DNA of 43,847 nt, taken from the IMG/VR virus record IMGVR_UViG_3300030613_000005. One strand, 5' to 3'. The translations under genes were made by a program, and so were the position numbers. This document shows, piece after piece, positions 2,007 to 43,847 of this stretch (positions within the stretch are counted from its first letter, which is position 1; the number at the start of each line of letters is the position of its first letter). Source of the stretch: a virus. The notes under the pieces are model-generated. The model was not told the origin of the DNA. It did no database searches and saw only the letters and a program-made list of their open reading frames with translations.

Positions 2007-5000
2007 ATGGGCGGAAATCCGTTAATTGACCAGTACCTTAAGAACCTAGCAGCAGTTCAGCAGTTCCGTATTAATAATACACATGCTGGACGTCTAGATT
2101 CTTTTAGTGCTGGATCCCCTACCGCATTACAGTTAGCGCTGGAGGCTATGCGGGCTAGGTCGCCCATCGGAACATACACTCCTGCACAAAAAGAAGACAG
2201 TGGTTTTAAGTTTAGTTCTTTGTTTAAAGTGCCTGCCGATCAGGAGTGGCTACCTGATTGGATGAAAAAAGCTTACACAGTTTCTCAAATTATTAATCCA
2301 GCTGCACTAGCCGGTAGGGCAACAACTGAGGGTATTGCTAAAGCAGCAGAAGTTGGTCCTATTAAATGGGGTATTGAACAGCTATCACGGCCTATGTACG
2401 GTGTAGGCTCTATGATAGAAGATACGAATAAAAAAGCAGATGAGATGGGCCGTAGTCGCTGGATTGGCCCAGATGTAGACCCTAAAGCTTTAGCAACATC
2501 CTTTCTTGAAGGTATTACTCTTAAAAATAAGGTCACTCCTGGAGAAGCGTTATTAGGGAAACCAGAAGGCCCAGCTGAAGGTTGGGGAGACGTAGGTAAA
2601 GGTGCTGCTAGATTCGGGCTAGACGTAGCTTTAGATCCTCTTAGCTACATTGGTGTAGGCGCTGCTACTAAAGCAGGTAAAGTTAGCAAAACTGGTAAAG
2701 CAACTGAAATTATTCAAGGGATACCTAAAAAAGAACCTTTAGCTATTGAGAGGCATTCTGTTAGCACTCCTAGGTTTACAGCTGGAACTACTGGTATTGC
2801 TGATAGGTTTAACCCTATTCAGCTGGCTGATGAAATTACAGCTAGTTCTTTAACTAAAACTGTGGCTACTACGCCTAAGCTTGCTCATCCTGGTTTAAAT
2901 GTAGATCCTATCTTCAAGGATGTTACTACTGAAAGTATTGTACGTACTCCTAAGACTGTTACAGAAACTGTAGAAATACCGTCATTTTTAACAGAAGAGC
3001 CTAAAGTATCAAAGAGCCTTGCTCAGCGACGTGCCGTTAAAATGGCTATGCTACAATCTCCTGGATATAAAGTCCAAGGTCAATACACCATAAATGATTT
3101 ACTTAAGACCGCGGCAGAACACCCAGAACGTCAAGCAGACATTGAACGTATAATCAATGCTGAGGTTAATAGAGTATTCAAAGAACGTAAGGTAAATACT
3201 GTCTTACCTTCAAGTAAAACTGGACAACAGCTTATTCCTTTCACTGGTCGTGAAGGTACAGGTAAAGCTGCTTTTGGCCTTACACTTGAGCAAGCCACTA
3301 AACTTTTCAGTGAAGGTAAAATTGGCGGGACGTTAGGCGGATATGGTAGTAAAGAGGCACAAGACTTTCTTAGTGCTCTGCCTTTTCATGACCCTTCTGA
3401 TTTTAATATAGCAACACTTAAAAATGCTAAAGGCGCTACTGTAACACTTAAGCAGTATTTGGATGATCTGGGTGTAGATGTTACAGCAGTCACGCCTACT
3501 GGGGAACCGAAAAGTATTTTATCACACAGTGTGGATGACTCAGCTTTCGCAAGTATGGTAGTACCTAAGGCTAAAACAAAAACTGTCATAAAAACTATAT
3601 ACGAAGAAGTTAAGAAAACTACTGCAAAAACCCAACGTTTATCTCAAGCAGAATCCATTGCTTGGGCACTAAAGCACCAAGGTGTCTTGTCTAAAGATGA
3701 GATTTCTTATCTTCGTATTAGCAAGAATAGAGAAGAGTTCTTTGCTAGAGTAAAGGAGCTATCTACCAAACAAATTGCTGGTGACTTTAAAACACTACAG
3801 GCTGTGGTAGATGCGCACAAAGCTGGCCTAATCCCAGCTGAGGCATTTCAAAAGATTCTAGATATTGCAGGTGCTAAGAATGCAACTGAGTTACTCAAAA
3901 AAGCAGATAAAATTCTCAATGGCATTAAAGGTAAGTCTAAGGTTACTAGTGCACCTAAAGTAGAACGTATTAAAGGTAAAGCGCCTGACACTGTGTGGGA
4001 AGGTGTTAAATCTGTAGACCAAGTAATTTCAGATGTGTCTAAGGGCGATACTAGCCTAGTACAACCAGCCGCACCGGTTGTAACTCAGCAATTAGTTACA
4101 GACCTAACTAATGCGATCCCAGAAGCTGTTCAAAAGAATCTAGCACGTGTATTGGACCCTAAAGGTGAGTACAAATGGGAAACAACGATTAAGAAAGCTA
4201 AGAGGACATCCCCTGTAGCGGGACAAGGCTATGGGAGAAATCTTCATGGCTGGAATATGTACTCACAGTCAGATGTATTTAGGGCCTTAACAACGGGCGC
4301 CTCTAAACGGCTGTATGGAGTTACTAGAGGTAAAACAGGGTCAGCACTTCACGCAGCATTAAGAGTACGTCCCGCTATGATGTATACGCAAGTAATGTCT
4401 GCTATGCGTGCTGCTGAGTTTGCACTTAAAAAACAAGGCGTTAAGATAGTAGCAGGGTCTGATAACTCAGGTTTGTTACTATCCATGGTTGATGTGCTAG
4501 ACAGTTTAGAACCAAGACTTGTCCAGAAGTATCTCTTTAGTACAGCAGATAAGTTTGCACCTAATGTCTACCCAACTAAGTTTATTGCTGCGGCAGAAGC
4601 GTACGCCCAGACAGCCATCGGCGGAGGATCATTAGATCTAGCACGTGAAAATGCTATTTCTCTGTTTTCTAAGACAGGAACAGGGGAACGGTTCGGTAAA
4701 ACTGGATCAGTAGATGAATTAGTAAGCAGTATCGAAACTGCTATGCCTAGTATCATGCAACGAATTACTGCAAATTACGCAGAAGAGAGTATTAAGTTAG
4801 GAGAGTCTGTTGTGTCAATGACAGACTCTGTAATTAGTACACTACTTACAGAGTTCTCGAATCCTAGTGTTTCTATTGGTAAAGCTTTTGAGAAACTTAT
4901 GTCTAGCAGTTCTGATATGGCGGCTGTAGCTAAGAGCATAAGTGCCCCACAAGGAGCTGTACAAACAGCTAAAGTTGTGTTGTCCAGTGAACTTGCTACT

Positions 5001-7223
5001 AAAGGTATTTCTACTGGTGATTTAGCTGAAGCTGCAATAGCTAATAGAATGACTAGAGCTGCCACACCAGAGGAGGCTGCTAAAATTGGTACGGCTCAAC
5101 AGAAAACTAGGACTGCTGAGGCTGGACATACTGCTCAAGAAGCAGATGTTGTTGAACTTGGAGATATTTTTGATATCTCTCTTAATGCTGGTGTTTTCAG
5201 GGCTAACTCTCCTATGCTGGGAAAAGTTGTTGCCATAAAAGATATGCTAGGAAGAGCACTTTACGCTTCATATGGGCATGCAGATATGCACTATATGGTG
5301 CATAAAAACCGTAACGTAGTGCAAGAGTATTCTAGGCTGCACAGGCATATCATGATGAATACTCATGGAATTGCTCGTGCAACTTATGGTGCGGAAGCTA
5401 ATAGCAAACTAGCGGAGGCTTTTAAGATTCTTCAAACAGGGGCAAAAATTGAAGATCCCAGAATGGTTTCTTTGGTTGAGTCTATGGGTAACTCTATTGG
5501 TATTCTATTCGACGGGGGTAACGCCTCTTTCAGCGTTCGCAATGGGTTGTTTTCTTCTCACCTTAATACTGTTCTTAACTATTTTGGTGTACATAGTGCT
5601 TACAGGTTTAAAGACGGTGTGCCTCTTACTAAGCAAACAGAATCATGGAAAATGTGGGATGAGGTAACTGACCCACTAGACGTTTTAGATAAAGTACACG
5701 CAGCCTATCAACGAGCTACAGTGGAAGTTACGATTGGTAGAGATATCTCTGCACAATGGGGAAGTGGTGTTAAAAAAGAAGGATTTGTTAAAATAACCGA
5801 TAAACACAGCCGTAGCAAAGTATTTGGCTTTCTAGACTCCAGTCTATACTACCCCAGAGAGATCGTAGAACAGCTTCCACATCTTGATAGATTTTTAGAT
5901 GAGACGCTATTCCGCAGCAGTAGTGACCTCATGAAGATGTATGACTCTGTGTTGCATGCTTACAAAGCTGGTCTAACTATCTATCGCCCTGGTCACCATA
6001 TGCGTAACCTTGTTGGTGATATGGGTATGTCATTCTTGGCAGGTGTTACTAATCCTAATAGGTACTACGATGCTATGCGTATACTTAAGGGGCGTGCATC
6101 TACTTATTCTGGAGATTGGGACGCATTTAAATCGCTACAGGCGGGAGAGGCAGCGACTGGCGCTAAATTAGGTTCAGATACTGTACTTACTATAGGTAGA
6201 AAAAAAGTAAAAGCTACAGACGATGCAGTATGGCGCGGTGCTTTTAATCAAGGCCTTCTGAATGACTACTCAATAATGGAAGACATTGCGTTCAATGAAA
6301 GTCAAAAGTTTGGACGTACCACTAAAAAGGCTAGTCTTAGGTATCCTCTAGGTGGTAGGGTTCAAAGAGCAGCAGGTGGGCTATCCCAGAGTCGTGACCA
6401 TATGGTACGAATCGCCCATTTCGTAGACGTGCTTAAAAAAGGTAAGTTCAACACACTAGAAGAAGCATTTGAAGAAGCAGGTAAAGTAGTACGTAAGTGG
6501 CACCCTGACGGATCCGATTTAACTAAGTTTGAACGTCAGACTATGCGTAGAGTCATTCCATTCTATAGTTGGTTCCGTAAGGCTATTCCTCTAGTTTTAG
6601 AGGCTATGGTAACTAAACCTGGTCGAGCAATGATTATGCCTAAAGCTAGCTATGAATTTGCTCAGACTATGGGTCTAGACCCTGAAAGCCTAGGAGATCC
6701 TTTTCCCCAGGATCAACTATACCCTGACTGGATGCGCGATGATATTCTAGGACCACAGTGGACAGGCAGTCTTGATATCGGGCCTATTCATTTAGGCTCT
6801 GACAATGGACAACGTTTTGGTATGAACCCTGGAGATCCTATTTCTGATTTAGGATCAGGATACTTAGGTGGAGATGCTCCTAAACAAGTACTAGGCTCTC
6901 TTACGCCTGCTGTCAGGATTCCCTTGGAATTAGGCTCAGGTAATGCCTTAGGTACAGGTGCTCCAATTACAAATACCTCAGAATACTTATCACAACAGCT
7001 TCCTGTAATAAGTGTAGCAGGAGCAATTGCAGGTAAGGATGTTCTTGGTGGATGGCAAAATAAATCTGCCGTAGAAAAAGGGTATCAACCAGAAGGTTTA
7101 GATCCTATTGCATTACAAAACCTTTTGTTAGGGCTAGGCGTTAAATCGTTCAATAAGCCTAACCATGCTATATCTGCACAGTATGACCTGCGTGACAAAC
7201 TTCGTGAGCAGGCAGGTAAATAA
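2007..7223 (+). CDS. Giant virion protein (1738 aa), probable internal core/ejection protein
   Basis: Uninterrupted 5.2-kb ORF followed immediately by a transglycosylase gene. By size and position it is analogous to podovirus internal core proteins. I could recognise no catalytic motif. Confidence 0.75.
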   Translation: MGGNPLIDQYLKNLAAVQQFRINNTHAGRLDSFSAGSPTALQLALEAMRARSPIGTYTPAQKEDSGFKFSSLFKVPADQEWLPDWMKKAYTVSQIINPAALAGRATTEGIAKAAEVGPIKWGIEQLSRPMYGVGSMIEDTNKKADEMGRSRWIGPDVDPKALATSFLEGITLKNKVTPGEALLGKPEGPAEGWGDVGKGAARFGLDVALDPLSYIGVGAATKAGKVSKTGKATEIIQGIPKKEPLAIERHSVSTPRFTAGTTGIADRFNPIQLADEITASSLTKTVATTPKLAHPGLNVDPIFKDVTTESIVRTPKTVTETVEIPSFLTEEPKVSKSLAQRRAVKMAMLQSPGYKVQGQYTINDLLKTAAEHPERQADIERIINAEVNRVFKERKVNTVLPSSKTGQQLIPFTGREGTGKAAFGLTLEQATKLFSEGKIGGTLGGYGSKEAQDFLSALPFHDPSDFNIATLKNAKGATVTLKQYLDDLGVDVTAVTPTGEPKSILSHSVDDSAFASMVVPKAKTKTVIKTIYEEVKKTTAKTQRLSQAESIAWALKHQGVLSKDEISYLRISKNREEFFARVKELSTKQIAGDFKTLQAVVDAHKAGLIPAEAFQKILDIAGAKNATELLKKADKILNGIKGKSKVTSAPKVERIKGKAPDTVWEGVKSVDQVISDVSKGDTSLVQPAAPVVTQQLVTDLTNAIPEAVQKNLARVLDPKGEYKWETTIKKAKRTSPVAGQGYGRNLHGWNMYSQSDVFRALTTGASKRLYGVTRGKTGSALHAALRVRPAMMYTQVMSAMRAAEFALKKQGVKIVAGSDNSGLLLSMVDVLDSLEPRLVQKYLFSTADKFAPNVYPTKFIAAAEAYAQTAIGGGSLDLARENAISLFSKTGTGERFGKTGSVDELVSSIETAMPSIMQRITANYAEESIKLGESVVSMTDSVISTLLTEFSNPSVSIGKAFEKLMSSSSDMAAVAKSISAPQGAVQTAKVVLSSELATKGISTGDLAEAAIANRMTRAATPEEAAKIGTAQQKTRTAEAGHTAQEADVVELGDIFDISLNAGVFRANSPMLGKVVAIKDMLGRALYASYGHADMHYMVHKNRNVVQEYSRLHRHIMMNTHGIARATYGAEANSKLAEAFKILQTGAKIEDPRMVSLVESMGNSIGILFDGGNASFSVRNGLFSSHLNTVLNYFGVHSAYRFKDGVPLTKQTESWKMWDEVTDPLDVLDKVHAAYQRATVEVTIGRDISAQWGSGVKKEGFVKITDKHSRSKVFGFLDSSLYYPREIVEQLPHLDRFLDETLFRSSSDLMKMYDSVLHAYKAGLTIYRPGHHMRNLVGDMGMSFLAGVTNPNRYYDAMRILKGRASTYSGDWDAFKSLQAGEAATGAKLGSDTVLTIGRKKVKATDDAVWRGAFNQGLLNDYSIMEDIAFNESQKFGRTTKKASLRYPLGGRVQRAAGGLSQSRDHMVRIAHFVDVLKKGKFNTLEEAFEEAGKVVRKWHPDGSDLTKFERQTMRRVIPFYSWFRKAIPLVLEAMVTKPGRAMIMPKASYEFAQTMGLDPESLGDPFPQDQLYPDWMRDDILGPQWTGSLDIGPIHLGSDNGQRFGMNPGDPISDLGSGYLGGDAPKQVLGSLTPAVRIPLELGSGNALGTGAPITNTSEYLSQQLPVISVAGAIAGKDVLGGWQNKSAVEKGYQPEGLDPIALQNLLLGLGVKSFNKPNHAISAQYDLRDKLREQAGK

Positions 7224-14284: not shown

Positions 14285-14342
14285 TAGTATCTCTCCCGTT
14301 CTAGTAAGATGTTTCTACTAAGATACTAATTCTAATTACAAG

Positions 14343-14416
14343 TGGACTAACTGGGACTTGAACCCAGGACCGCCATCTTATAAGGATGGTGCTCTAACCT
14401 ACTGAGCTATTAGTCC
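14343..14416 (-). tRNA. tRNA-Ile (anticodon UAU)
   Basis: Hand-folded cloverleaf: GGACTAA / TA / GCTC-AGTAGGTTA-GAGC / A / CCATC-CTTATAA-GATGG / CGGTC / CTGGG-TTCAAGT-CCCAG / TTAGTCC / A. Confidence 0.8.
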
Positions 14417-14599: not shown

Positions 14600-14600
14600 G

Positions 14601-14673
14601 TGCCCTAGGTGGGACTCGAACCCACACTGTTCCGATTTTAAATCGGATTTCTCTGCCGTTGGAATACTAGGGC
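14601..14673 (-). tRNA. tRNA with anticodon UAA (Leu-decoding) but a class I short variable arm
   Basis: Hand-folded: GCCCTAG / TA / TTC-CAACGGCAGA-GAA / A / TCCGA-TTTAAAA-TCGGA / ACAGT / GTGGG-TTCGAGT-CCCAC / CTAGGGC / A. Confidence 0.7.
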
Positions 14674-15281: not shown

Positions 15282-15788
15282 TTAGTCGTCGAACGGGTTA
15301 GAGCCACCAGACGAAACAGTGCTGATCCCACCCTCAGGAACCACTACCTCTCCTGGCTTAGCAGCCCGAGAGTAAATAGAAGGATAGTCCGAACCTGCCT
15401 TGTGCTTAACAGTCAGGACAGATGGCAGACCGATAAGGTCCTCTGGCTTGGTCTGATTAATCCTTGACTCAGGAACACCCAGATTCAGCATCTCTTTCTT
15501 GAGGAAGGAAAGAGCCTCTTGGTACTTTTGTTTGGCTTCATCAGTCATGAGAGCCATATCTTCTGGTGAGAGTCGCTTGGGGATATTGTGCCAGGTTTGG
15601 AGAATCCGGCCAGCTTTCCCCCCTTCGACAATGGTACGCTTGATAACCAAACTCTTCTTGGTCTTGTCCGCGTTGTCGACTACACTAACTTCTGTGACGA
15701 TAGTAGGGTACACGCCAGCTGGAATTTTAAACGGATCGTCGTCGGCCGAAGCAACGTCTAGGTCACCAAAGATGTTGTCTTCAAACAT
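15282..15788 (-). CDS. SSB-like protein with acidic C-terminal tail
   Basis: 168 aa ending in SNPFDD. Positioned immediately downstream of the ATPase/exonuclease recombination genes. The function is inferred. Confidence 0.5.
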   Translation of the reverse strand: MFEDNIFGDLDVASADDDPFKIPAGVYPTIVTEVSVVDNADKTKKSLVIKRTIVEGGKAGRILQTWHNIPKRLSPEDMALMTDEAKQKYQEALSFLKKEMLNLGVPESRINQTKPEDLIGLPSVLTVKHKAGSDYPSIYSRAAKPGEVVVPEGGISTVSSGGSNPFDD

Positions 15789-20666: not shown

Positions 20667-20667
20667 G

Positions 20668-20740
20668 CTCCCCCACCTGGACTTGAACCAGGAACCAGCT
20701 GATTAACAGTCAGCTACTCTGCCAATTGAGTTATAGGGGA
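20668..20740 (-). tRNA. tRNA-Asn (anticodon GUU)
   Basis: Hand-folded: TCCCCTA / TA / ACTC-AATTGGCA-GAGT / A / GCTGA-CTGTTAA-TCAGC / TGGTT / CCTGG-TTCAAGT-CCAGG / TGGGGGA / G. Confidence 0.85.
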
Positions 20741-22239: not shown

Positions 22240-22461
22240 CTAGACTTCTTCGGCCTCATAAGCGTAAAGAGTGCTGATTCTTGCTCTATCAAAGAGTGCA
22301 TCAGCACTGCTTCTAGACTCGGCGTCTTCTGGATCGTATCTGTGGAAGTTTAGCGTAAACTCTCCCTGAACGCAACAGTCTACCCATTTGATTCTGTATT
22401 TTTTACCGGACACCATGTTGTAGATTAATCCAGATGGGATAGGATCATAGTAATCATCCAT
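22240..22461 (-). CDS. Hypothetical protein (73 aa)
   Basis: ORF starting 1 nt inside the SNF2 gene stop (overlapping junction). Confidence 0.65.
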   Translation of the reverse strand: MDDYYDPIPSGLIYNMVSGKKYRIKWVDCCVQGEFTLNFHRYDPEDAESRSSADALFDRARISTLYAYEAEEV

Positions 22462-24452
22462 TAGGCAATCTCCCCATTACGCATAGCCTCTAGCAGGTTA
22501 CTAGCCATGCTCTCAACACCTTCTACGATGCCTGCTTTCTCGTCATTAAGGTTATCCATCCAGGTGTCGATAGTCCCAGGGATCCTAAGAATGTGGACAG
22601 TAGTAGTATCCAGCTTACTAAAGGATTCTACTCTTGCCCAAGCTTGCTCATTCTTCCCAGGATTCCATTCCCTATCGAGGCTAATGACATGGTTGGCCCC
22701 AGACAACTCAAGCCCGACTCCGCCAGTTTTGTAGTTAGCAAGAACGACTTGCCATCTGGGCCTAGGATTGTCTCTACTTCCGTCAAAATCTAACTTGATT
22801 TGATCCCGGAGATACTCTGGAGTATCTCCATCAAAGACAACTGCGGGGATTCCGTCTTTGCATAGTCTAGATTCAAGCTCACGTAGTGGCCCCTTGAACT
22901 GACTAAAAACCACTGCTCGCTCGCCATTTTCCATACCATCCTGACAGATTTCCTTTAGCAAATCCACAGCACGGTCTACAATGATACTCTCCCTAGTATC
23001 ATCTCCAACGGAGAAGACAACATCCCCCTTCTCATCTTTCATGTTTATTCCAGCGGGCCAAACATTCGCCTGACGCTTACGCAGAATTACTGTGATAGCT
23101 GCAAGCATCTCCATTTTAGCCCCGGTGGTCTCGAGGATAATCTGGGCGAACTTACTAACCTGCTGGATAATACGCCACTGGTTCGGGTAGTCATCTACCA
23201 AATCCTGACGATCAATGTCGTGATAGATGATATCCTGCTTAGGAATCTCCACACCAGCAGACTTACGATCTCTGGCGATGTACCTACCAGCCAAGTGGTG
23301 CTGTAGTTCATCTAGCGCACCACTACGGAACTCCCACCTATTAGTGTAGACATTCCTACGGCAGTACATGCTCAAGAAGACATTCTTGTCGTGGAAGATT
23401 TCTGGCAACACAAGATGCAGCAGTGGGAACATTTCAACTGGCCTGTTAAGAATAGGTGTTCCCGTCATTGGAAAGACATTCTTAACGCTGCATCTAGCGT
23501 AGGCTTCATACTTATCACGTCGAGTGTCAAAGCCACAGCTGTCACACTGCCAGTAATGCTCGAACCTACTAATATTGAACTGAGTAAAGATTCCGCTACA
23601 GCGGGGACAGCTATTCTCAGCGAAGACTATCTTCTTCACACCTTTAAAGGCACTAGTATCAGTATCCTTGATGGCGTGTGCCTCGTCCATTATAACAGTA
23701 TCAAACCTGCACTCAGCCAACAAGTCCAGAAGATGGGGGTCCTTACGCCAAGCTTCGTAGTTGATAACTACTGTATATTCAGCGAGGCGTTTAAGGGTCA
23801 TGAAAGTAACGTCTCTCATCCCGCGGGTCATCTTATACATCAAGATGTTGTTACGGTGTGGCGCCCACCTAGTTACTTGAGCGTAGAAGGTCTTACAGAC
23901 ATCAGCTGGCGCAATGATAAGTATCTTCTGTGCATGCAATAGGTCCGCAGTTGCTAGCACAGTAAGTGTCTTACCAAGTCGCATCTTGTCAGCTAAAATA
24001 CCTCGCTTGACATTACTAAGTGCTAGAGCCCCCTCAATCTGGTGCTTAAGGATAAACTCATGCCAATAGTAACCCGTACTAAGGTTATCGAATTCCAGCC
24101 GACGCCGTTCCCAATCAGCTTTCTGTCGTTCTCTATCTAGAGCTAGCCTCAGTCTGCGTTCCAGGTTGAGGATTTCAATACCTAGCTCACGGATAGTACG
24201 TCGAACATCCCACAATTCTTCATCAATTTCCCCTCGCTCTGTAGCGAGAGCATCGATCTTAGCTTGCATCTCTTCGCGTATACGCTTAATTTCAGCGTTA
24301 ATCTCTTTAGCGCGATCTTCTTTAACAGCAATGCTTGCAGCTAGAGTATCTCTCTCTGACACTTTTGCTGTAAGCTCATCCCCAATGATTTCTGACTCTG
24401 AGCGTACTAGCTCGAGCTTAGTGATAGTGTCAAAAGAAAAGATACTCTCCAC
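22461..24452 (-). CDS. SNF2-family helicase/translocase with N-terminal coiled coil and zinc-ribbon insertion
   Basis: Motif I LADKMRLGKT and motif II IMDEAHAIKD. Helicase C region ANYKTGGVGLELSGANHVISLDREWNP. Insertion CPRCSG...CDSCGF. The first ~130 aa are charged heptad-like. Confidence 0.85.
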   Translation of the reverse strand: MESIFSFDTITKLELVRSESEIIGDELTAKVSERDTLAASIAVKEDRAKEINAEIKRIREEMQAKIDALATERGEIDEELWDVRRTIRELGIEILNLERRLRLALDRERQKADWERRRLEFDNLSTGYYWHEFILKHQIEGALALSNVKRGILADKMRLGKTLTVLATADLLHAQKILIIAPADVCKTFYAQVTRWAPHRNNILMYKMTRGMRDVTFMTLKRLAEYTVVINYEAWRKDPHLLDLLAECRFDTVIMDEAHAIKDTDTSAFKGVKKIVFAENSCPRCSGIFTQFNISRFEHYWQCDSCGFDTRRDKYEAYARCSVKNVFPMTGTPILNRPVEMFPLLHLVLPEIFHDKNVFLSMYCRRNVYTNRWEFRSGALDELQHHLAGRYIARDRKSAGVEIPKQDIIYHDIDRQDLVDDYPNQWRIIQQVSKFAQIILETTGAKMEMLAAITVILRKRQANVWPAGINMKDEKGDVVFSVGDDTRESIIVDRAVDLLKEICQDGMENGERAVVFSQFKGPLRELESRLCKDGIPAVVFDGDTPEYLRDQIKLDFDGSRDNPRPRWQVVLANYKTGGVGLELSGANHVISLDREWNPGKNEQAWARVESFSKLDTTTVHILRIPGTIDTWMDNLNDEKAGIVEGVESMASNLLEAMRNGEIA

Positions 24453-26589: not shown

Positions 26590-26616
26590 AAGATCGTAAA
26601 ATAGTCCCCGGAATAT

Positions 26617-26657
26617 GGGAATAAAGGTAGGTCGCTTAGCGACCGTACTTTATTCCC
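26617..26657 (-). terminator. Strong composite hairpin, possible terminator of the promoter-A transcript
   Basis: GGGAATAAAG/CTTTATTCCC (10 bp) plus an inner GGTCGC/GCGACC (6 bp, loop TTA). The flanks are AT-rich but there is no clean U-run. Confidence 0.4.
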
Positions 26658-27014
26658 AATTATTCCACTAATTAATTATTTTTTCTTTCTTTAACTTCAT
26701 TCTAAACGAAAAAATAGGTTACGCTAGGTATTATATCCATATTCCCTAACGAAATAGTCGAGTTGTTTTTAAGAATATAAATGATACAAAATGGACTCGA
26801 CGAAGTTAAAAACCTATTTAAACTAGTAGAACTTAGTTAAAACTTGGTAAGGGCTCTAATAATGGAATACTAACACTCTCTCATTATCAGTATTATCTAG
26901 TGCTAGGCCCTTAACTAAAGTTATGGGGACTTTCCTCTATTTAATTCTCAATATACTAGCACTAATAAGAGTCATCAACTGTCTTATTGTGCTTGTGCTT
27001 TCCGAACTAGTGCA

Positions 27015-27043
27015 ACTCTACTCCCCTAGCACGAACCCGTCAA
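27015..27043 (-). promoter_or_regulatory. Promoter A: TTGACG-N17-TAGAGT
   Basis: Minus-strand -35 at 27038-43 and -10 at 27015-20. Shares GCTAG(G/A)GGAGTAG with promoter B. It fires into an ORF-free AT-rich region. Confidence 0.6.
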
Positions 27044-27127
27044 ATTTCCGGAGGTTCCCGGACAAAGCGGACATTTTGGTACACATGACGCATAACGCCG
27101 CATTGTTTCCATGCGGACTATAGTGGA

Positions 27128-27171
27128 AAGAATATAGCCCCAACTCCCTAAGGAATTGGGGCTATATTCTT
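27128..27171 (-). terminator. Terminator T1 downstream of CDS 27189..27926
   Basis: 16-bp stem AAGAATATAGCCCCAA/TTGGGGCTATATTCTT plus an inner TCC/GGA. T-rich 3' side on the minus strand. Confidence 0.8.
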
Positions 27172-27188
27172 GTGGAACTATTCAGTTC

Positions 27189-27926
27189 TTAGTTCTTGGG
27201 AGACACCCGAACTTCGTAGTTCTTCTCCCCTGCGGTGAAACCGAACTCGACGATGGTGGAAAGGTCCTGAGTTCCTGCGGTTTCATAGAGAGGACCCTGA
27301 AGATCCTTCGCTGAGACATTGACATCCTTACCAGCATCCTTGGAAATGAGCTGAGCGAGGACAGTCAGGTTGGTAACTCGCTTCTCCTCCGGCTTGCCCG
27401 CATCCTTGACAGTAAAGACATCAATCCAAGCTTCCGAACCGGCGACTCGGTATTCAATCTTGGCGAATCGCGGACGGGGAATACCAGCGGAAGATGCTCC
27501 ACCACGACCAGTACCAGGAGCAGCCTTGATTTCAGGAACATCTTCCAGAGCCTTCTCAACACCAGGGAAGCTCAGGAGAGTCTTACGCATATCCCGCGCC
27601 TGAGAGACAAGGTCCTTATACTGAGCTGTAATCTTTTCGACATCAATCGGCTCTTGAGAAACGAAGCCCTTCTCAATGATGTACTTCTCAACAGCAGCTT
27701 GATTCTTGAGAATTTCCTCGTTAACCGAGTTGTACCACTTACGGTACTTGAGAATGTTCGCGTCATCCGTTTCTGCCTCATCGCGGAACTGGTGAAGCAG
27801 AAGGTCCTTACTGCCCGCTGCCACAAGCTTATCTGCAAGAGAGTTGGCGTTGGTGATCAGATCACCCAGAACCTGCGTGCCAGCGGTGACGAAATTGTTG
27901 AGTGTGTCAGCGGACATGGTGTCCAC
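27189..27926 (-). CDS. Hypothetical protein (245 aa) in a GC-rich cassette
   Basis: ORF with its own promoter (B) and terminator (T1). RBS AAAGGGTGG. I recognised no motif. Confidence 0.8.
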   Translation of the reverse strand: MDTMSADTLNNFVTAGTQVLGDLITNANSLADKLVAAGSKDLLLHQFRDEAETDDANILKYRKWYNSVNEEILKNQAAVEKYIIEKGFVSQEPIDVEKITAQYKDLVSQARDMRKTLLSFPGVEKALEDVPEIKAAPGTGRGGASSAGIPRPRFAKIEYRVAGSEAWIDVFTVKDAGKPEEKRVTNLTVLAQLISKDAGKDVNVSAKDLQGPLYETAGTQDLSTIVEFGFTAGEKNYEVRVSPKN

Positions 27927-27966
27927 CCTTTCTAGGTGTTGTGGTCGGGGCCTGACTTCAAGTGCC

Positions 27967-27995
27967 AGACTACTCCTCTAGCGCCACTATGTCAA
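27967..27995 (-). promoter_or_regulatory. Promoter B: TTGACA-N17-TAGTCT
   Basis: Minus-strand -35 at 27990-95 and -10 at 27967-72, about 35 nt upstream of ATG 27926. Confidence 0.65.
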
Positions 27996-28067
27996 TTCAT
28001 CGGACGCGTGGAGCTCTGTAGCGGGAACAATTCGGGCAAGCCGCCGCATTTGTTTCCATGCAGCTTA

Positions 28068-28110
28068 AAGAAATTGGGCTAATCCCTTGAGGGACTAACC
28101 CAATTTCTTT
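28068..28110 (-). terminator. Terminator T2 downstream of the 28109..28692 two-gene unit
   Basis: 12-bp stem AAAGAAATTGGG/CCCAATTTCTTT with an inner TCCC/GGGA. Overlaps the stop at 28109-11. Confidence 0.75.
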
Positions 28111-28255
28111 ACTCGTTGGGGTATTGGTCGAGATAGACTTTGAGAAGGGCTATCAGCTCCTCCGGCTTACCTTCTGGGAGCTTTCCCTCCGGTGTCTCAT
28201 TGGCAACAAGCAACTTCATTATTGCCAGCATGAGTGGGTAACCCTCTGAGAGCAT
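28109..28255 (-). CDS. Small ORF (48 aa) translationally coupled to the upstream gene
   Basis: TGATG overlap at 28253-28257. Translation MLSEGYPLMLAIMKLLVANETPEGKLPEGKPEELIALLKVYLDQYPNE. Same high-GC codon style as its neighbours. Confidence 0.5.
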   Translation of the reverse strand: MLSEGYPLMLAIMKLLVANETPEGKLPEGKPEELIALLKVYLDQYPNE

Positions 28256-28692
28256 CAGGCCTTGTCCTCCATCAGTTTCTCAACAATCGACTTGGCTTCC
28301 AAGAGAGATAGTGCTGGGAAACTCTCTCGGAGCGTCTTGACTGCGAGGACCTTCTTGTCGTCACGGATAGCAGCGAAGGTGACAGGATACTCGCCGTAGT
28401 GGTTGTGCGAGTAGGTGAGCATTTCAGCAATCGCAGAGATAAGTGCAGTGTTCTCTCTCCTGTTGTTGTAAGTGCGAGCATCAGCGAGTTCTCTGTCCAG
28501 CTGCTCAATCGTTCTTCCGCGCTGTTCATCCTGAGAGCCCAGGCGGACGAAGTTCGCGTTCAGAGTATTGAGGGCAGACTGTGCGCTATCCAGAGCAGAA
28601 GTCGTGTTCTCCAAGGTATCCTGTAGATACCTCACATCCGCGACGAGTGACAGGAAATACCTCATCCGCTTGGCTGAGACCTTGAACTTCAT
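28255..28692 (-). CDS. Protein with a ribosomal bL12 (L7/L12) C-terminal-domain-like motif
   Basis: C-terminus KKVLAVKTLRESFPALSLLEAKSIVEKL compared with E. coli bL12 [26 protein letters not shown] (recalled from memory). N-terminal coiled coil. RBS GAGGAG. Has its own promoter C. Confidence 0.6.
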   Translation of the reverse strand: MKFKVSAKRMRYFLSLVADVRYLQDTLENTTSALDSAQSALNTLNANFVRLGSQDEQRGRTIEQLDRELADARTYNNRRENTALISAIAEMLTYSHNHYGEYPVTFAAIRDDKKVLAVKTLRESFPALSLLEAKSIVEKLMEDKA

Positions 28693-28728
28693 TGTGTCTC
28701 CTCTGCTCTGTTCCCTGCTGACATCTAA

Positions 28729-28757
28729 AGACTATCGCAGTTCGGCTAGTTAGTCAA
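28729..28757 (-). promoter_or_regulatory. Promoter C: TTGACT-N17-TAGTCT (leftward early promoter)
   Basis: Minus-strand -35 at 28752-57 and -10 at 28729-34, about 30 nt upstream of ATG 28692. Confidence 0.65.
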
Positions 28758-28808
28758 GAAACCATGTTGTACAGGTCGCCGCGCCGCCCTTTGTTTCCAT
28801 TATAGTAT

Positions 28809-28887
28809 CTAACTTCCACTTCACATTAATATTCAATGTGTACTAAGCTAACTTCCACCTAATATACTAATTTACTTGTGTACTAAG
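28809..28887. promoter_or_regulatory. Direct repeats in the divergent control region (candidate operators)
   Basis: CTAACTTCCAC at 28809 and 28848. GTGTACTAAG at 28838 and 28878. Each pair is 39-40 bp apart. Confidence 0.55.
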
Positions 28888-28902
28888 TAGTTACTTATCT
28901 AC

Positions 28903-28931
28903 TTGACATCTCGTATATGTTACCGTAGTAT
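28903..28931 (+). promoter_or_regulatory. Rightward promoter TTGACA-N17-TAGTAT driving a leaderless transcript
   Basis: -35 at 28903-08 and -10 at 28926-31. ATG 28938 lies 7 nt after the -10, with no room for an RBS. Confidence 0.65.
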
Positions 28932-28937
28932 TTAGAT

Positions 28938-29429
28938 ATGATTAATCCTTATAAAGCAGCTAGGGAGGATCTTGGTTTATCCCAAGCATCTGTAGCCGAG
29001 GCTTCTAATGTCTCTAGACATTATGTGCTTCGTGTAGAACAAGGTTTATTCCATGTCCCTAGTCCTCGCCTAAGCACAACTCTTAATATAAGTCATATGG
29101 AACTTACAGATACTTACCATGAATGGCAGCATATTACTCGTGCTTTAGCTGCCCCTTCTGTAGCGGAGGGCGTAGAAAAGTATTTTCAAAGTGTACTAGT
29201 TCCTCTACAGAATAAACATCCTCATATAAAGCTACGTCAGTGTATTACAGATTCACAAGTGGCTTTTTGCATCCTGCTTAAGATTCAGCCTTCTAGACTA
29301 AGTGCATATGAAAAATCTAAAGGCATTACATTACCACTATTTCTAAAGGAGGCTTACTTTGACTGCGGAGTCACCCCTGAACAGCTTAATAGAATCGAAT
29401 CCAGATTCCGAGGAGCTACTCTCAGATAA
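28938..29429 (+). CDS. Xre/Cro-type helix-turn-helix regulator
   Basis: The N-terminus DLGLSQASVAEASNVSRHYVLRVEQG is a classic HTH_3-like pattern. First gene of the rightward arm. Confidence 0.75.
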   Translation: MINPYKAAREDLGLSQASVAEASNVSRHYVLRVEQGLFHVPSPRLSTTLNISHMELTDTYHEWQHITRALAAPSVAEGVEKYFQSVLVPLQNKHPHIKLRQCITDSQVAFCILLKIQPSRLSAYEKSKGITLPLFLKEAYFDCGVTPEQLNRIESRFRGATLR

Positions 29430-43693: not shown

Positions 43694-43847
43694 TTGGTAT
43701 ATCCTAATGGTGTTGCTAAAGGTGGGGGTGGGTTTAATCCTTTTGCAGCAGGGCTTAAAAGATACGGTGCATCTGGCTTACTTACAGGTCCAAACGTGGG
43801 CCCTGTAGCAGATAAATCAGGATATAGAGAAAGAGATGCACAAACTG
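43694..43847 (+). CDS. 5' part of the junction-spanning small ORF (continues at nt 128 of the circle)
   Basis: TTG 43694 lies 4 nt after AGGAGGG. The frame stays open to the window end and continues to the stop at 214-216. Confidence 0.6.
   Translation, partial: MVYPNGVAKGGGGFNPFAAGLKRYGASGLLTGPNVGPVADKSGYRERDAQT
43721..43847. repeat. Terminal overlap copy 2 (identical to nt 1-127)
   Basis: Read directly. Confidence 0.95.

Follow-up and report, generated by a model that had tools for sequence, protein, structure and literature searches.

A GC-rich island of three predicted promoter-terminator units, probably an ancestral early module of Jasmine-like phages

The viral record IMGVR_UViG_3300030613_000005 of the IMG/VR database, whose entire stretch of 43,847 nucleotides (nt) is hereinafter called the window, carries between positions 27,015 and 28,800 a compositionally distinct island in which three units, each with its own predicted promoter, lie in tandem on the minus strand. 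An earlier note on this DNA had described these units as stacked promoter/terminator cassettes, and every element that it described is present on that strand; it had further read them as serially acquired foreign DNA, whereas the comparison with related phages reported here points to an old module that is probably ancestral to a clade of actinobacterial podoviruses. In the leftward direction of reading, the elements are as follows:

28791..28800, minus strand: box C, ATGGAAACAA, the first half of a bipartite element whose second half, ACAACATG, lies at 28763-28770
28729..28757, minus strand: predicted promoter C, TTGACT-N17-TAGTCT, a match to the promoter formula discussed below, followed by the conserved leader TTTAGATGTCAGCAGGGAACAG
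28255..28692, minus strand: cargo gene 1, an ORFan coding for 145 amino acids (aa), which contains a coiled-coil region and weakly matches a motif from the C-terminus of ribosomal protein L7/L12
28109..28255, minus strand: cargo gene 2, coding for 48 aa, whose start overlaps the stop of the 145-aa gene (ATGA) and which is present in the Joint Genome Institute (JGI) and Logan gene calls
28066..28111, no strand assigned: hairpin T2 (-32.1 kcal/mol, z = -8.7), identical to inverted repeat I3, with a stem running into A-rich/T-rich flanks
28050..28059, minus strand: box B, an exact copy of ATGGAAACAA, followed by ATGCGGCGGC
28016..28024, minus strand: CCGCTACAG, one copy of a genome-wide over-represented 8-mer, between box B and promoter B
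27967..27995, minus strand: predicted promoter B, TTGACA-N17-TAGTCT, a match to the formula
27189..27917, minus strand: the core gene, 242 aa (up to 27926 and 245 aa from an upstream GTG), its ATG at 27917 being the start chosen by gene callers
27128..27171, no strand assigned: hairpin T1 (-34.5 kcal/mol, z = -8.1)
27103..27112, minus strand: box A, ATGGAAACAA, followed by TGCGGCG, with ATGTC-type direct repeats and TGTGTACCAA (27076-27085) downstream
27015..27043, minus strand: predicted promoter A, TTGACG-N17-TAGAGT, a match to the formula
26660..27008, minus strand: the AT-rich non-coding DNA (31% GC) that promoter A faces, with no same-strand open reading frame (ORF) of 30 aa or more
26616..26658, no strand assigned: hairpin T0 (-31.5 kcal/mol, z = -7.6), which closes unit A and whose core, GGTCGCTAAGCGACC, is identical in the relative L003
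26490..26572, minus strand: CTCTGACC(TG), then GTCTAC...GTAGAC palindromes, just after T0

The promoter formula of the earlier note, TTGACN-N17-TAG(A/T)(G/C)T, which it took for that of strong host-type promoters, finds four matches in the 43.8 kb as compared to 0.18±0.46 in shuffled sequences, and three of the four are within the island; with the looser pattern TTGACN-N16-18-TAnnnT, promoters A, B and C are the sole minus-strand matches. The motif said to be shared by promoters A and B is likewise real, GCTAGRGGAGTAG being common to these two only, as is the box preceding each promoter: ATGGAAACAA occurs in exact form three times genome-wide, each time in the island and on the minus strand (28800, 28059 and 27112). 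The hairpins T0, T1 and T2 fold 7.6-8.7 standard deviations better than shuffled sequence, and T1 is the longest near-perfect hairpin recovered from the genome by a whole-genome inverted-repeat script. T1 and T2 are predicted terminators of the bidirectional type. No match was found in the region in Rfam at gathering or E-value thresholds. Two candidate functions for the box were rejected, namely that it is the start of a small peptide, given that indels between copies (ATGGAAACAATGCGG, ATGGAAACAAATGCGG, ATGGAAACATAATGCGG) break the frame, and that it is an ECF-sigma (extracytoplasmic function) or sigma-54 promoter or the target of a conserved upstream -10, given that the spacing to candidate second elements varies. 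It also shows partial resemblances to GlnR-, CRP- and DnaA-type sites, with none of which we claim identity.

The window is a closed circular assembly with an exact 127-nt overlap (1-127 equals 43721-43847) and a unique length of 43,720 bp. The overlap is an assembler (k-mer) signature of a circular or permuted genome, and in an assembly circularized in this way any direct terminal repeat would be collapsed. It codes for polA, a primase-helicase-like ATPase, a SNF2 helicase, a PD-(D/E)XK nuclease, a portal and capsid protein of the P22/SU10 type and three minus-strand tRNAs (Ile-TAT, Leu-TAA and Asn-GTT; 14342-14416, 14600-14673 and 20667-20740). Arthrobacter phage Jasmine (Jasminevirus) and Cellulosimicrobium phage DS1 have large terminases of about 41% identity to that of the window, and the whole genome plan is common to the three, with the late genes running rightward, the early and replication genes running leftward and the island sitting at the divergent junction. 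No integrase was seen in the window, and hence the phage is probably lytic; a cyanobacterial host was rejected, as the highly iterated palindrome HIP1 occurs just once in it. Jasmine is a podovirus of 45.9% GC with a host of 63.4% GC and bears an Lsr2-like gene within its terminal repeat (PMC5513430). Our comparisons of the island layout cover these two cultured phages and the metagenomic loci L001, L003, L012, L013, L014, L015, L069, L089 and L128.

The layout of box, promoter, variable ORFans, promoter, gene of the 245-aa family, terminator and box recurs in approximately ten metagenomic phages; DS1 and Jasmine have it partially or in a diverged form. Across the window and the nine metagenomic loci, TGGAAAC(A/G)N is found only at three stereotyped places. 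The first is ahead of the first-slot promoter, where TGGAAACAA-N17-21-ACAACATG-N2-9-(-35) is seen in the window, L001, L003, L012, L013, L069, L089 and L128; the second is 127-189 nt 5' of the core gene in six of nine relatives; and the third is 68-92 nt 3' of the core-gene stop in all eight metagenomic relatives with the region available. The core gene itself is present in every relative examined, and a hairpin equivalent to T1 follows it in L001, L003, L012, DS1 and Jasmine. The copy of the 8-mer, CCGCTACAG, occupies the equivalent place in L001, L003, L013 and L089. Scanning IMG/VR for the bipartite pattern, with DNA as the only criterion, gave about 119 matches, mostly due to chance, from which a filter for an adjacent promoter retained three further islands, two of them with the family gene just downstream in the fetched DNA. 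The earlier note had proposed a search in other phages and in actinobacterial genomes: the former yielded these approximately ten metagenomic phages together with DS1 and Jasmine, while cellular genomes yielded no close relatives of the 245-aa protein.

In DS1, gcATGGAAACAtcgcgTGGAAAC lies after a terminator, upstream of the family gene. In Jasmine, the whole module is present in diverged form within its 1,330-bp terminal repeat, with three box-like elements in the same order, and the boundary of the repeat is the first base of the first of these. Jasmine and the window further agree in having a giant structural protein, polA, helicases and an exonuclease on the opposite strand, a divergent junction and the module at the same position, an equivalent gene with a homologous N-terminal domain and raised third-position G+C in a low-GC phage, a small ORF slot upstream and a terminator after the gene. 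They differ in that the Jasmine protein has 184 aa and ends in a true Lsr2 DNA-binding domain, whereas in the protein of the window, at 242 aa, the (R/K)PR linker leads into an alpha/beta domain unrelated to that one, and in that Jasmine has a documented terminal repeat (PMC5513430), which the assembly of the window cannot show.

The earlier note had called the island compositionally foreign, and the observation of GC-rich coding DNA is sound: GC is 0.51 across 27001-28500 as compared to 0.438 genome-wide, AT-rich troughs of 0.29-0.31 flank the island on both sides, and windowed GC and codon statistics both set it apart. The difference lies mainly at the third codon position, where the G+C fraction (GC3) is 0.65 in the 145-aa gene, 0.62 in the 48-aa gene and 0.55 in the core gene, i.e., 0.55-0.65 as against 0.35±0.06 in 31 other genes, with the first and second positions (GC1 and GC2) being normal. 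It is mainly A-ending codons that are avoided: AAA falls from 59% in the other genes to 6% in the island, GTA from 42% to 0%, CTA from 29% to 4%, TTA from 23% to 0% and ATA from 20% in the bulk genome to 10%, the last two being codons read by the phage-encoded Leu-TAA and Ile-TAT tRNAs. Accordingly, the third-position A fraction (A3) drops from 0.29 to 0.13 and that of T (T3) from 0.36 to 0.28, T-ending codons being largely retained. Outside the island, the sole GC3 outliers, both on the early strand, are a 168-aa gene (15282-15788, minus strand; 0.53) and the SNF2 helicase (22461-24452, minus strand; 0.48). The same shift is seen in the relatives, here listed by the divergence of the core protein from that of the window:

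L003: core protein 71% identical; island GC3 0.57-0.65, other genes 0.33-0.45
L001: core protein 59% identical; island GC3 0.57-0.58, other genes 0.33-0.45
L012: core protein 27% identical; island GC3 0.64-0.70, other genes 0.15-0.34
DS1: core protein about 23% identical (hhalign); island GC3 0.74-0.80, other genes about 0.59-0.69, with one gene at 0.75
Jasmine: homologue of the N-terminal domain only; island GC3 0.58, other genes 0.33-0.46

The shift extends to the first-slot genes of the relatives, which are mutually unrelated. Thus, seen as it is in orthologues with as little as 27% identity as well as in unrelated cargo genes, it tracks position or expression class rather than ancestry; and since a donor composition would decay over such divergence and not reappear in unrelated occupants, we conclude that the composition is maintained by selection linked to the locus. 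This bears directly on the claim of the earlier note that the units are serially acquired or duplicated moron-type cassettes, on which view they would have kept the composition of a higher-GC donor. In favour of that claim are a composition and codon usage that are clearly distinct, the separate promoter and terminator of each unit and first-slot cargo that is replaced by other ORFans in nearly every relative; furthermore, the GC-rich terminal repeat of the BE-cluster Streptomyces phages has been read as a block transfer (PMC8612146). However, order and signals are syntenic down to 27% core-protein identity and in two cultured genera; the layout, the box and the GC3 shift recur at 71%, 59% and 27% identity and again in DS1 and Jasmine; the shift in orthologues and in unrelated genes of the same slot speaks for ongoing selection and not for a donor residue; GC1 and GC2 are normal; and no donor emerged, neither cellular genomes nor IMG/VR having yielded close relatives of the 245-aa family. 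We hold acquisition from such a donor to be very improbable and a foreign origin of the whole island to be largely refuted.

The BE-cluster phages offer an instructive parallel. Terminal repeats with Lsr2 genes occur among Arthrobacter and Streptomyces phages, and the terminal repeat of the BE-cluster has 54.4% GC as against 47.0% in the remaining genome (PMC8612146). Both they and the window are low-GC actinophages with a higher-GC terminal or early segment encoding an Lsr2-type protein; however, their repeats span 10-12 kb and were read by the authors as transferred blocks, whereas the data on the island argue for a composition maintained by selection.

Two compatible pressures fit such selection, namely translation with the tRNA pool of the naive host and a preference for GC at the level of DNA. 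In phages, a difference in codon usage between early and late genes is known (PMC12482277). The alternative that the composition is wholly a DNA-level adaptation, by which a GC-rich island escapes AT-seeking silencers (host Lsr2 or a nucleoid-like protein of the phage) that would nucleate on the AT troughs, finds backing in the non-coding box-to-start segments of four phages, where GC is 0.47-0.56 as compared to 0.29-0.41 in the flanking non-coding DNA. It also finds backing in the island of L012, where A3 and T3 both fall, in the presence within the island of a gene for a relative of phage Lsr2-like proteins, and in the preference of Lsr2-like proteins for AT-rich DNA with a GC drop near the transcription start (PMC8612146). 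However, in the three closest phages A3 goes down two- to three-fold and T3 less, with GCT, GGT, TCT, ATT and GAT being retained; a strand-symmetric avoidance of AT would not produce this pattern, and a codon choice linked to tRNAs fits it better. We consider a purely DNA-level cause doubtful.

Within the island, the first slot is where the phages differ. The homologue search with the 145-aa protein returned only itself, with all Pfam and NCBIfam matches being sub-threshold, and the 48-aa product has no family match in Pfam or NCBIfam. At least 12 unrelated ORFan families occupy the slot in 11 phages, the cargo differing in almost every relative and having no Pfam or NCBIfam assignment in any of them. 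Promoter C and its leader are kept around this varying cargo, TTTAGATGTCAGCAGGGAACAG being retained in L003 and L013 despite different genes there. In L012 (7411-7886) and L015 (926-1090), the cargo includes a small protein whose N-terminus resembles a signal peptide or that of a lipoprotein and which is 55% identical between the two, and L012 has, in addition, a Cys-rich protein of 94 aa; these are kinds of accessory genes unlike those of the window. The first-slot ORFans are probably host-takeover or anti-defence accessories.

The moron label of the earlier note fits unit C in its variable content, and not unit B, whose core gene is present in every relative examined. Like the morons known from lambdoid and other temperate phages, unit C forms an autonomous unit of promoter, gene and terminator with lineage-specific content. 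It departs from them in that the scaffold of box, promoter, leader and terminator is ancestral and fixed, with only the ORF being exchanged, and in that the deviant composition is common to all occupants and therefore no mark of foreign origin. Put against the usual attributes of morons, a separate promoter and terminator are there, variable presence is seen in unit C and not in unit B, and the composition is not that of a recent foreign arrival. What survives of the original picture, i.e., cassettes with early host-driven expression and one moron-like slot, is plausible as a reading of the signals.

A closer analogy is provided by the PeSLs, the composites of a stem-loop and a sigma-70-like early promoter known from T4-like myoviruses (PMC2839356, PMC4122927). 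In the window, too, a stem-loop is followed by a promoter (T2 by promoter B, T1 by promoter A) beside ORFans that differ between relatives, and in both cases insulated expression and modular shuffling can be proposed. The differences are that the virus group and host phylum are other ones, that the window has three units at one locus rather than dozens in hyperplastic regions, that an additional invariant 9-mer box stands between hairpin and promoter, and that one unit holds a conserved core gene and one no gene at all. By this analogy, the terminator-box-promoter units might be portable patches of homology at which recombination swaps genes, with the box serving as a recombination junction and not in regulation, a reading that is compatible with an ancestral early module. 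The composites match the definition of PeSLs (PMC4122927), the cargo from box C to box B is hypervariable between conserved flanks that include the 5' leader, and independent short metagenomic contigs have their termini at the boxes, L010 and L011 spanning the interval between boxes B and A and L006 and L016 breaking off at box A (28044-27105 in the coordinates of the window), in each case within a few bases of the box. As the shared box is far shorter than assembler k-mers, these breaks suggest that co-occurring population variants branch at the boxes. Against mobility of this type, the similarity between the units of one genome is short (a box of 10-19 nt and a promoter motif of 13 nt) and hence a poor substrate for homologous recombination; the invariance of the 9-mer across very deep divergence argues for recognition by a protein and not for mere homology; the positions of box A and the core gene never vary; and PeSLs have been described solely in T4-like myoviruses. 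We regard this reading as possible and hold it tentatively. Unit C is in any event predicted to be a moron-like or PeSL-like swap slot on a fixed scaffold, and the TGGAAACAA boxes mark module junctions and are probably protein-binding and/or recombination sites.

The core gene of unit B had been placed at 27189..27926 with a product of 245 aa. The gene is real; its start is most likely the ATG at 27917, giving 242 aa, because a Shine-Dalgarno-like GAAAGGGTGG precedes it and gene callers chose it. The earlier note had recognized no motif in the product, a statement that is now outdated. While a word-indexed search found only four clusters, an exhaustive profile search recovered a family of 171 representative clusters, nearly all of them 230-280 aa long and covered end to end by the alignment. 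At the same time, no close relatives of the protein turned up in deposited phages (tblastn), IMG/VR (protein patterns) or cellular genomes, and a metagenome scan gave a single fragment. The protein comprises a helical N-terminal domain (residues 1-125), a basic Gly-rich linker (126-150) and an alpha/beta C-terminal domain (151-242); the linker has an isoelectric point of 10.7 between acidic flanking domains of about 5, and the sole invariant residue of the family, R150, lies in an (R/K)-P-R motif at its end. An AlphaFold2 model from a 76-sequence alignment has a confidence score (pLDDT, predicted local distance difference test) of 89.2, with three long N-terminal helices, a disordered linker and a C-terminal domain at about 97.

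The N-terminal domain is the link to previously known proteins. It aligns with Jasmine gp1 (hhalign 92.8%, E = 3.8e-7; family residues 18-137 on 19-141), which sits at the equivalent position and whose C-terminus is the Pfam Lsr2_DNA-bd domain (E = 6e-13), and the phage family phrog_21142 ('Lsr2-like') gives weak matches in 3 of 76 family members, that in P0127 covering residues 34-109, i.e., the N-terminal helices. The 253-aa protein of DS1 is a member of the family (hhalign 98.5%) at the equivalent genomic position, and is probably the one BFVD protein, also of 253 aa, that matched structurally. Direct homology of the 245-aa protein to Lsr2 was considered and rejected, as it lacks the Lsr2 domain and is without detectable similarity to the Lsr2 of M. 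tuberculosis. The family is most aptly viewed as combining the N-terminal module of phage Lsr2-like proteins with a C-terminal module that is different and novel.

Unit A has no gene. The statement that promoter A faces a non-coding region holds, and the closing hairpin T0 can now be added to it. A promoter-like TTGAC(A/G)-N17-TAnnnT is found at the place of promoter A in L014, L089 and L128, AATAG(T/A)GGA..CCCC patches in the non-coding stretch are conserved with L001 and L003, and the next leftward gene starts at about 26387. Support for a structured RNA driven by promoter A is weak, with a fold z of -5.0 for the stretch with T0 falling to -2.2 without it and no Rfam match; beyond about 250 nt, the alignment with relatives is too poor for covariation analysis. 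Past T0, CTCTGACC is conserved in L001, L003, L012, L015, L089 and L128 and is followed in each by phage-specific repeats (the region lies at 9240-9340 in L003, 11640-11780 in L001 and 9170-9300 in L012, where the repeats are TTCTCAC direct repeats). This region loosely resembles the left genome end of Jasmine (...GACCCCTCTACCAT). Together with the palindromes, CTCTGACC may constitute an iteron or operator array, a replication origin or the boundary of a terminal repeat.

The second of these options can be extended to unit A as a whole, which would then be a transcription-activated replication origin with an AT-rich unwinding region, an iteron/palindrome array and, in the (A/T)TGTCC repeats beside box A, sites for a DnaA-like initiator. 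Consistent with this, the segment is ORF-free at 31% GC, T0 is followed by the conserved CTCTGACC and the phage-specific repeats, six phages have phased ATGTC/TGTCC repeats in the interval from box A to promoter A, the cumulative GC-skew minimum is near 29 kb and the evidence for a structured RNA is weak. Yet the skew minimum coincides with the switch in transcription direction and is confounded by it, the match to the DnaA box is only partial, none of the genes is assigned as an initiator, and T0 would halt the transcript short of the repeats. We consider an origin of this kind less likely than not, yet a serious alternative to an early RNA.

Taking these lines together, we propose, and consider probable, that the island is an ancestral immediate-early module of a Jasmine-like podovirus clade infecting actinobacteria, placed at the divergent junction of late and early genes. 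A host RNA polymerase of the sigma-A type would fire from the three near-consensus promoters, and a very stable bidirectional hairpin would close each unit such that the products are dosed separately and read-through into the replication genes is prevented. Unit C would offer a swap slot for lineage-specific ORFans. Unit B would supply the protein of about 245 aa, in which the Lsr2 DNA-binding domain appears to be replaced by the basic linker with (R/K)-P-R and the novel alpha/beta domain, and which might act as a nucleoid-associated, DNA-coating or counter-silencing protein. Unit A would fire into the AT-rich non-coding leader ending at T0, upstream of the iteron-like array, to give an early RNA or activate an origin. 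By avoiding A-ending codons, including the TTA and ATA read by phage tRNAs, the first proteins could be made with the tRNA pool of a naive, higher-GC host, and the GC-rich DNA of the island may evade AT-directed silencers. Finally, the island probably is, or adjoins, a terminal repeat and would thus be among the first DNA to enter the cell, by homology with Jasmine, whose own copy of the module fills the 1,330-bp direct terminal repeat.

Stacked promoters of this kind have well-known counterparts. The A1-A3 promoters of T7 and the pre-early region of T5 are clusters of host-polymerase promoters at the leading genome end, from which small host-takeover and anti-defence genes are expressed first. 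Like these, the island opens the early region with several strong host-type promoters (predicted, in its case) that all point the same way; however, the three T7 promoters feed one operon, while those of the island are each closed by a hairpin of their own. In all, the island fully matches none of the Jasmine, BE-cluster, PeSL, moron and T7/T5 systems.

Several points weigh against the proposal of an immediate-early module with a nucleoid-type protein. The use and timing of the promoters and the termination at the hairpins are predicted from sequence. A terminal repeat cannot show in a collapsed circular assembly. Box B is missing in three of the nine relatives, and the boxes of Jasmine are diverged (CTGGAAC, CTGGAAT and ATGGAAA), their homology being argued from position and context. 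The GC enrichment of the non-coding segments is something for which codon selection alone cannot account, and the notion of host-like codons comes only from the phage tRNAs and the analogies with Jasmine and DS1. As for the protein, its DNA-binding or nucleoid-associated role is suggested by the architecture and the basic RPR linker; Foldseek searches with two models of it returned no neighbour in PDB, its C-terminal domain included; the Lsr2 DNA-binding domain (Pfam PF23359, with its RGR motif) is absent from the 242-aa protein and all 76 members; and the comparison with M. tuberculosis Lsr2 gave a probability of 0.2% in hhalign and a marginal result in phmmer.

A bolder extension, improbable when taken as a whole, is that AT-rich phages of high-GC actinobacteria possess a silencer-proof landing pad: the first-entering terminal repeat, being GC-rich and host-recoded, would be expressed at once despite silencing of the Lsr2 type, and its product, a new class of nucleoid protein combining an oligomerization domain of the phage Lsr2 type with a novel DNA-binding fold and an RPR hook, would counter-silence or organize the rest of the genome, with the TGGAAACAA boxes acting as the genome terminus or module junction and as sites of accessory exchange.

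What is new here is the evidence for a selected composition, the protein family with its domain swap, the invariant junction box and the fixed scaffold with one hypervariable slot. Sharp GC and codon islands in phages are usually read as horizontal acquisitions, whereas, by the comparison made here, an island of this kind can be ancestral and held distinct through selection linked to first expression. The uncharacterized family of 171 clusters has a confidently predicted fold with no neighbour among solved structures, and its cultured member in DS1 makes testing possible. The first slot is a natural place to seek anti-defence and host-takeover genes in actinophages, and the deep conservation of the 9-mer TGGAAACAA lets such islands be found from DNA alone.

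To the right of the island, the divergent junction holds two further features:

28837..28931, plus strand: divergent control region with 29% GC, two TGTGTACTAA sites (28837 and 28877) and a rightward promoter
28903-28931, plus strand: the predicted rightward promoter, TTGACA-N17-TAGTAT, which serves a helix-turn-helix (HTH, Xre-type) gene at 28938-29429

Beyond the Xre-type HTH gene lie a small-terminase-like gene and then the late genes, and the HTH_3 gene is syntenic in L007, L012 and L015. TGTGTAC(C/T)AA has three exact copies in the genome, at 28837-28846 and 28877-28886 on the plus strand and at 27076-27085 on the minus strand beside box A; in L001 and L003, it lies inside the promoter spacer of the HTH gene. 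It is probably the operator of the adjoining Xre-type regulator.

Elsewhere in the genome, the structural block includes a protein of 1,738 aa (2007-7223, plus strand) to which proteins of similar size in Jasmine (1,803 aa) and DS1 (1,783 aa) correspond in position, none of the three with a Pfam match, and which may be an internal virion or ejection protein. Directly upstream of the terminase, L003, the relative at 71% identity (4427-4651), and L004 (4156-4380) have a 74-aa gene with a Pfam match to Tad2-like (anti-Thoeris) proteins. The 8-mer CGCTACAG, by far the most over-represented in the genome of the window, has 28 copies on both strands as compared to about one expected (e.g., at 1800, 4220, 9467, 12760, 20747, 28023 and 43276). 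It occurs in both coding and non-coding DNA, with no preference for either orientation relative to transcription (13 of the 28 copies lie on the sense strand), and is enriched 30-60-fold in L001, L003, L069, L089 and L128, while L012, L015, Jasmine and DS1 show no such enrichment. It could be a signal specific to the host lineage, e.g., a Chi-like, uptake or modification motif.

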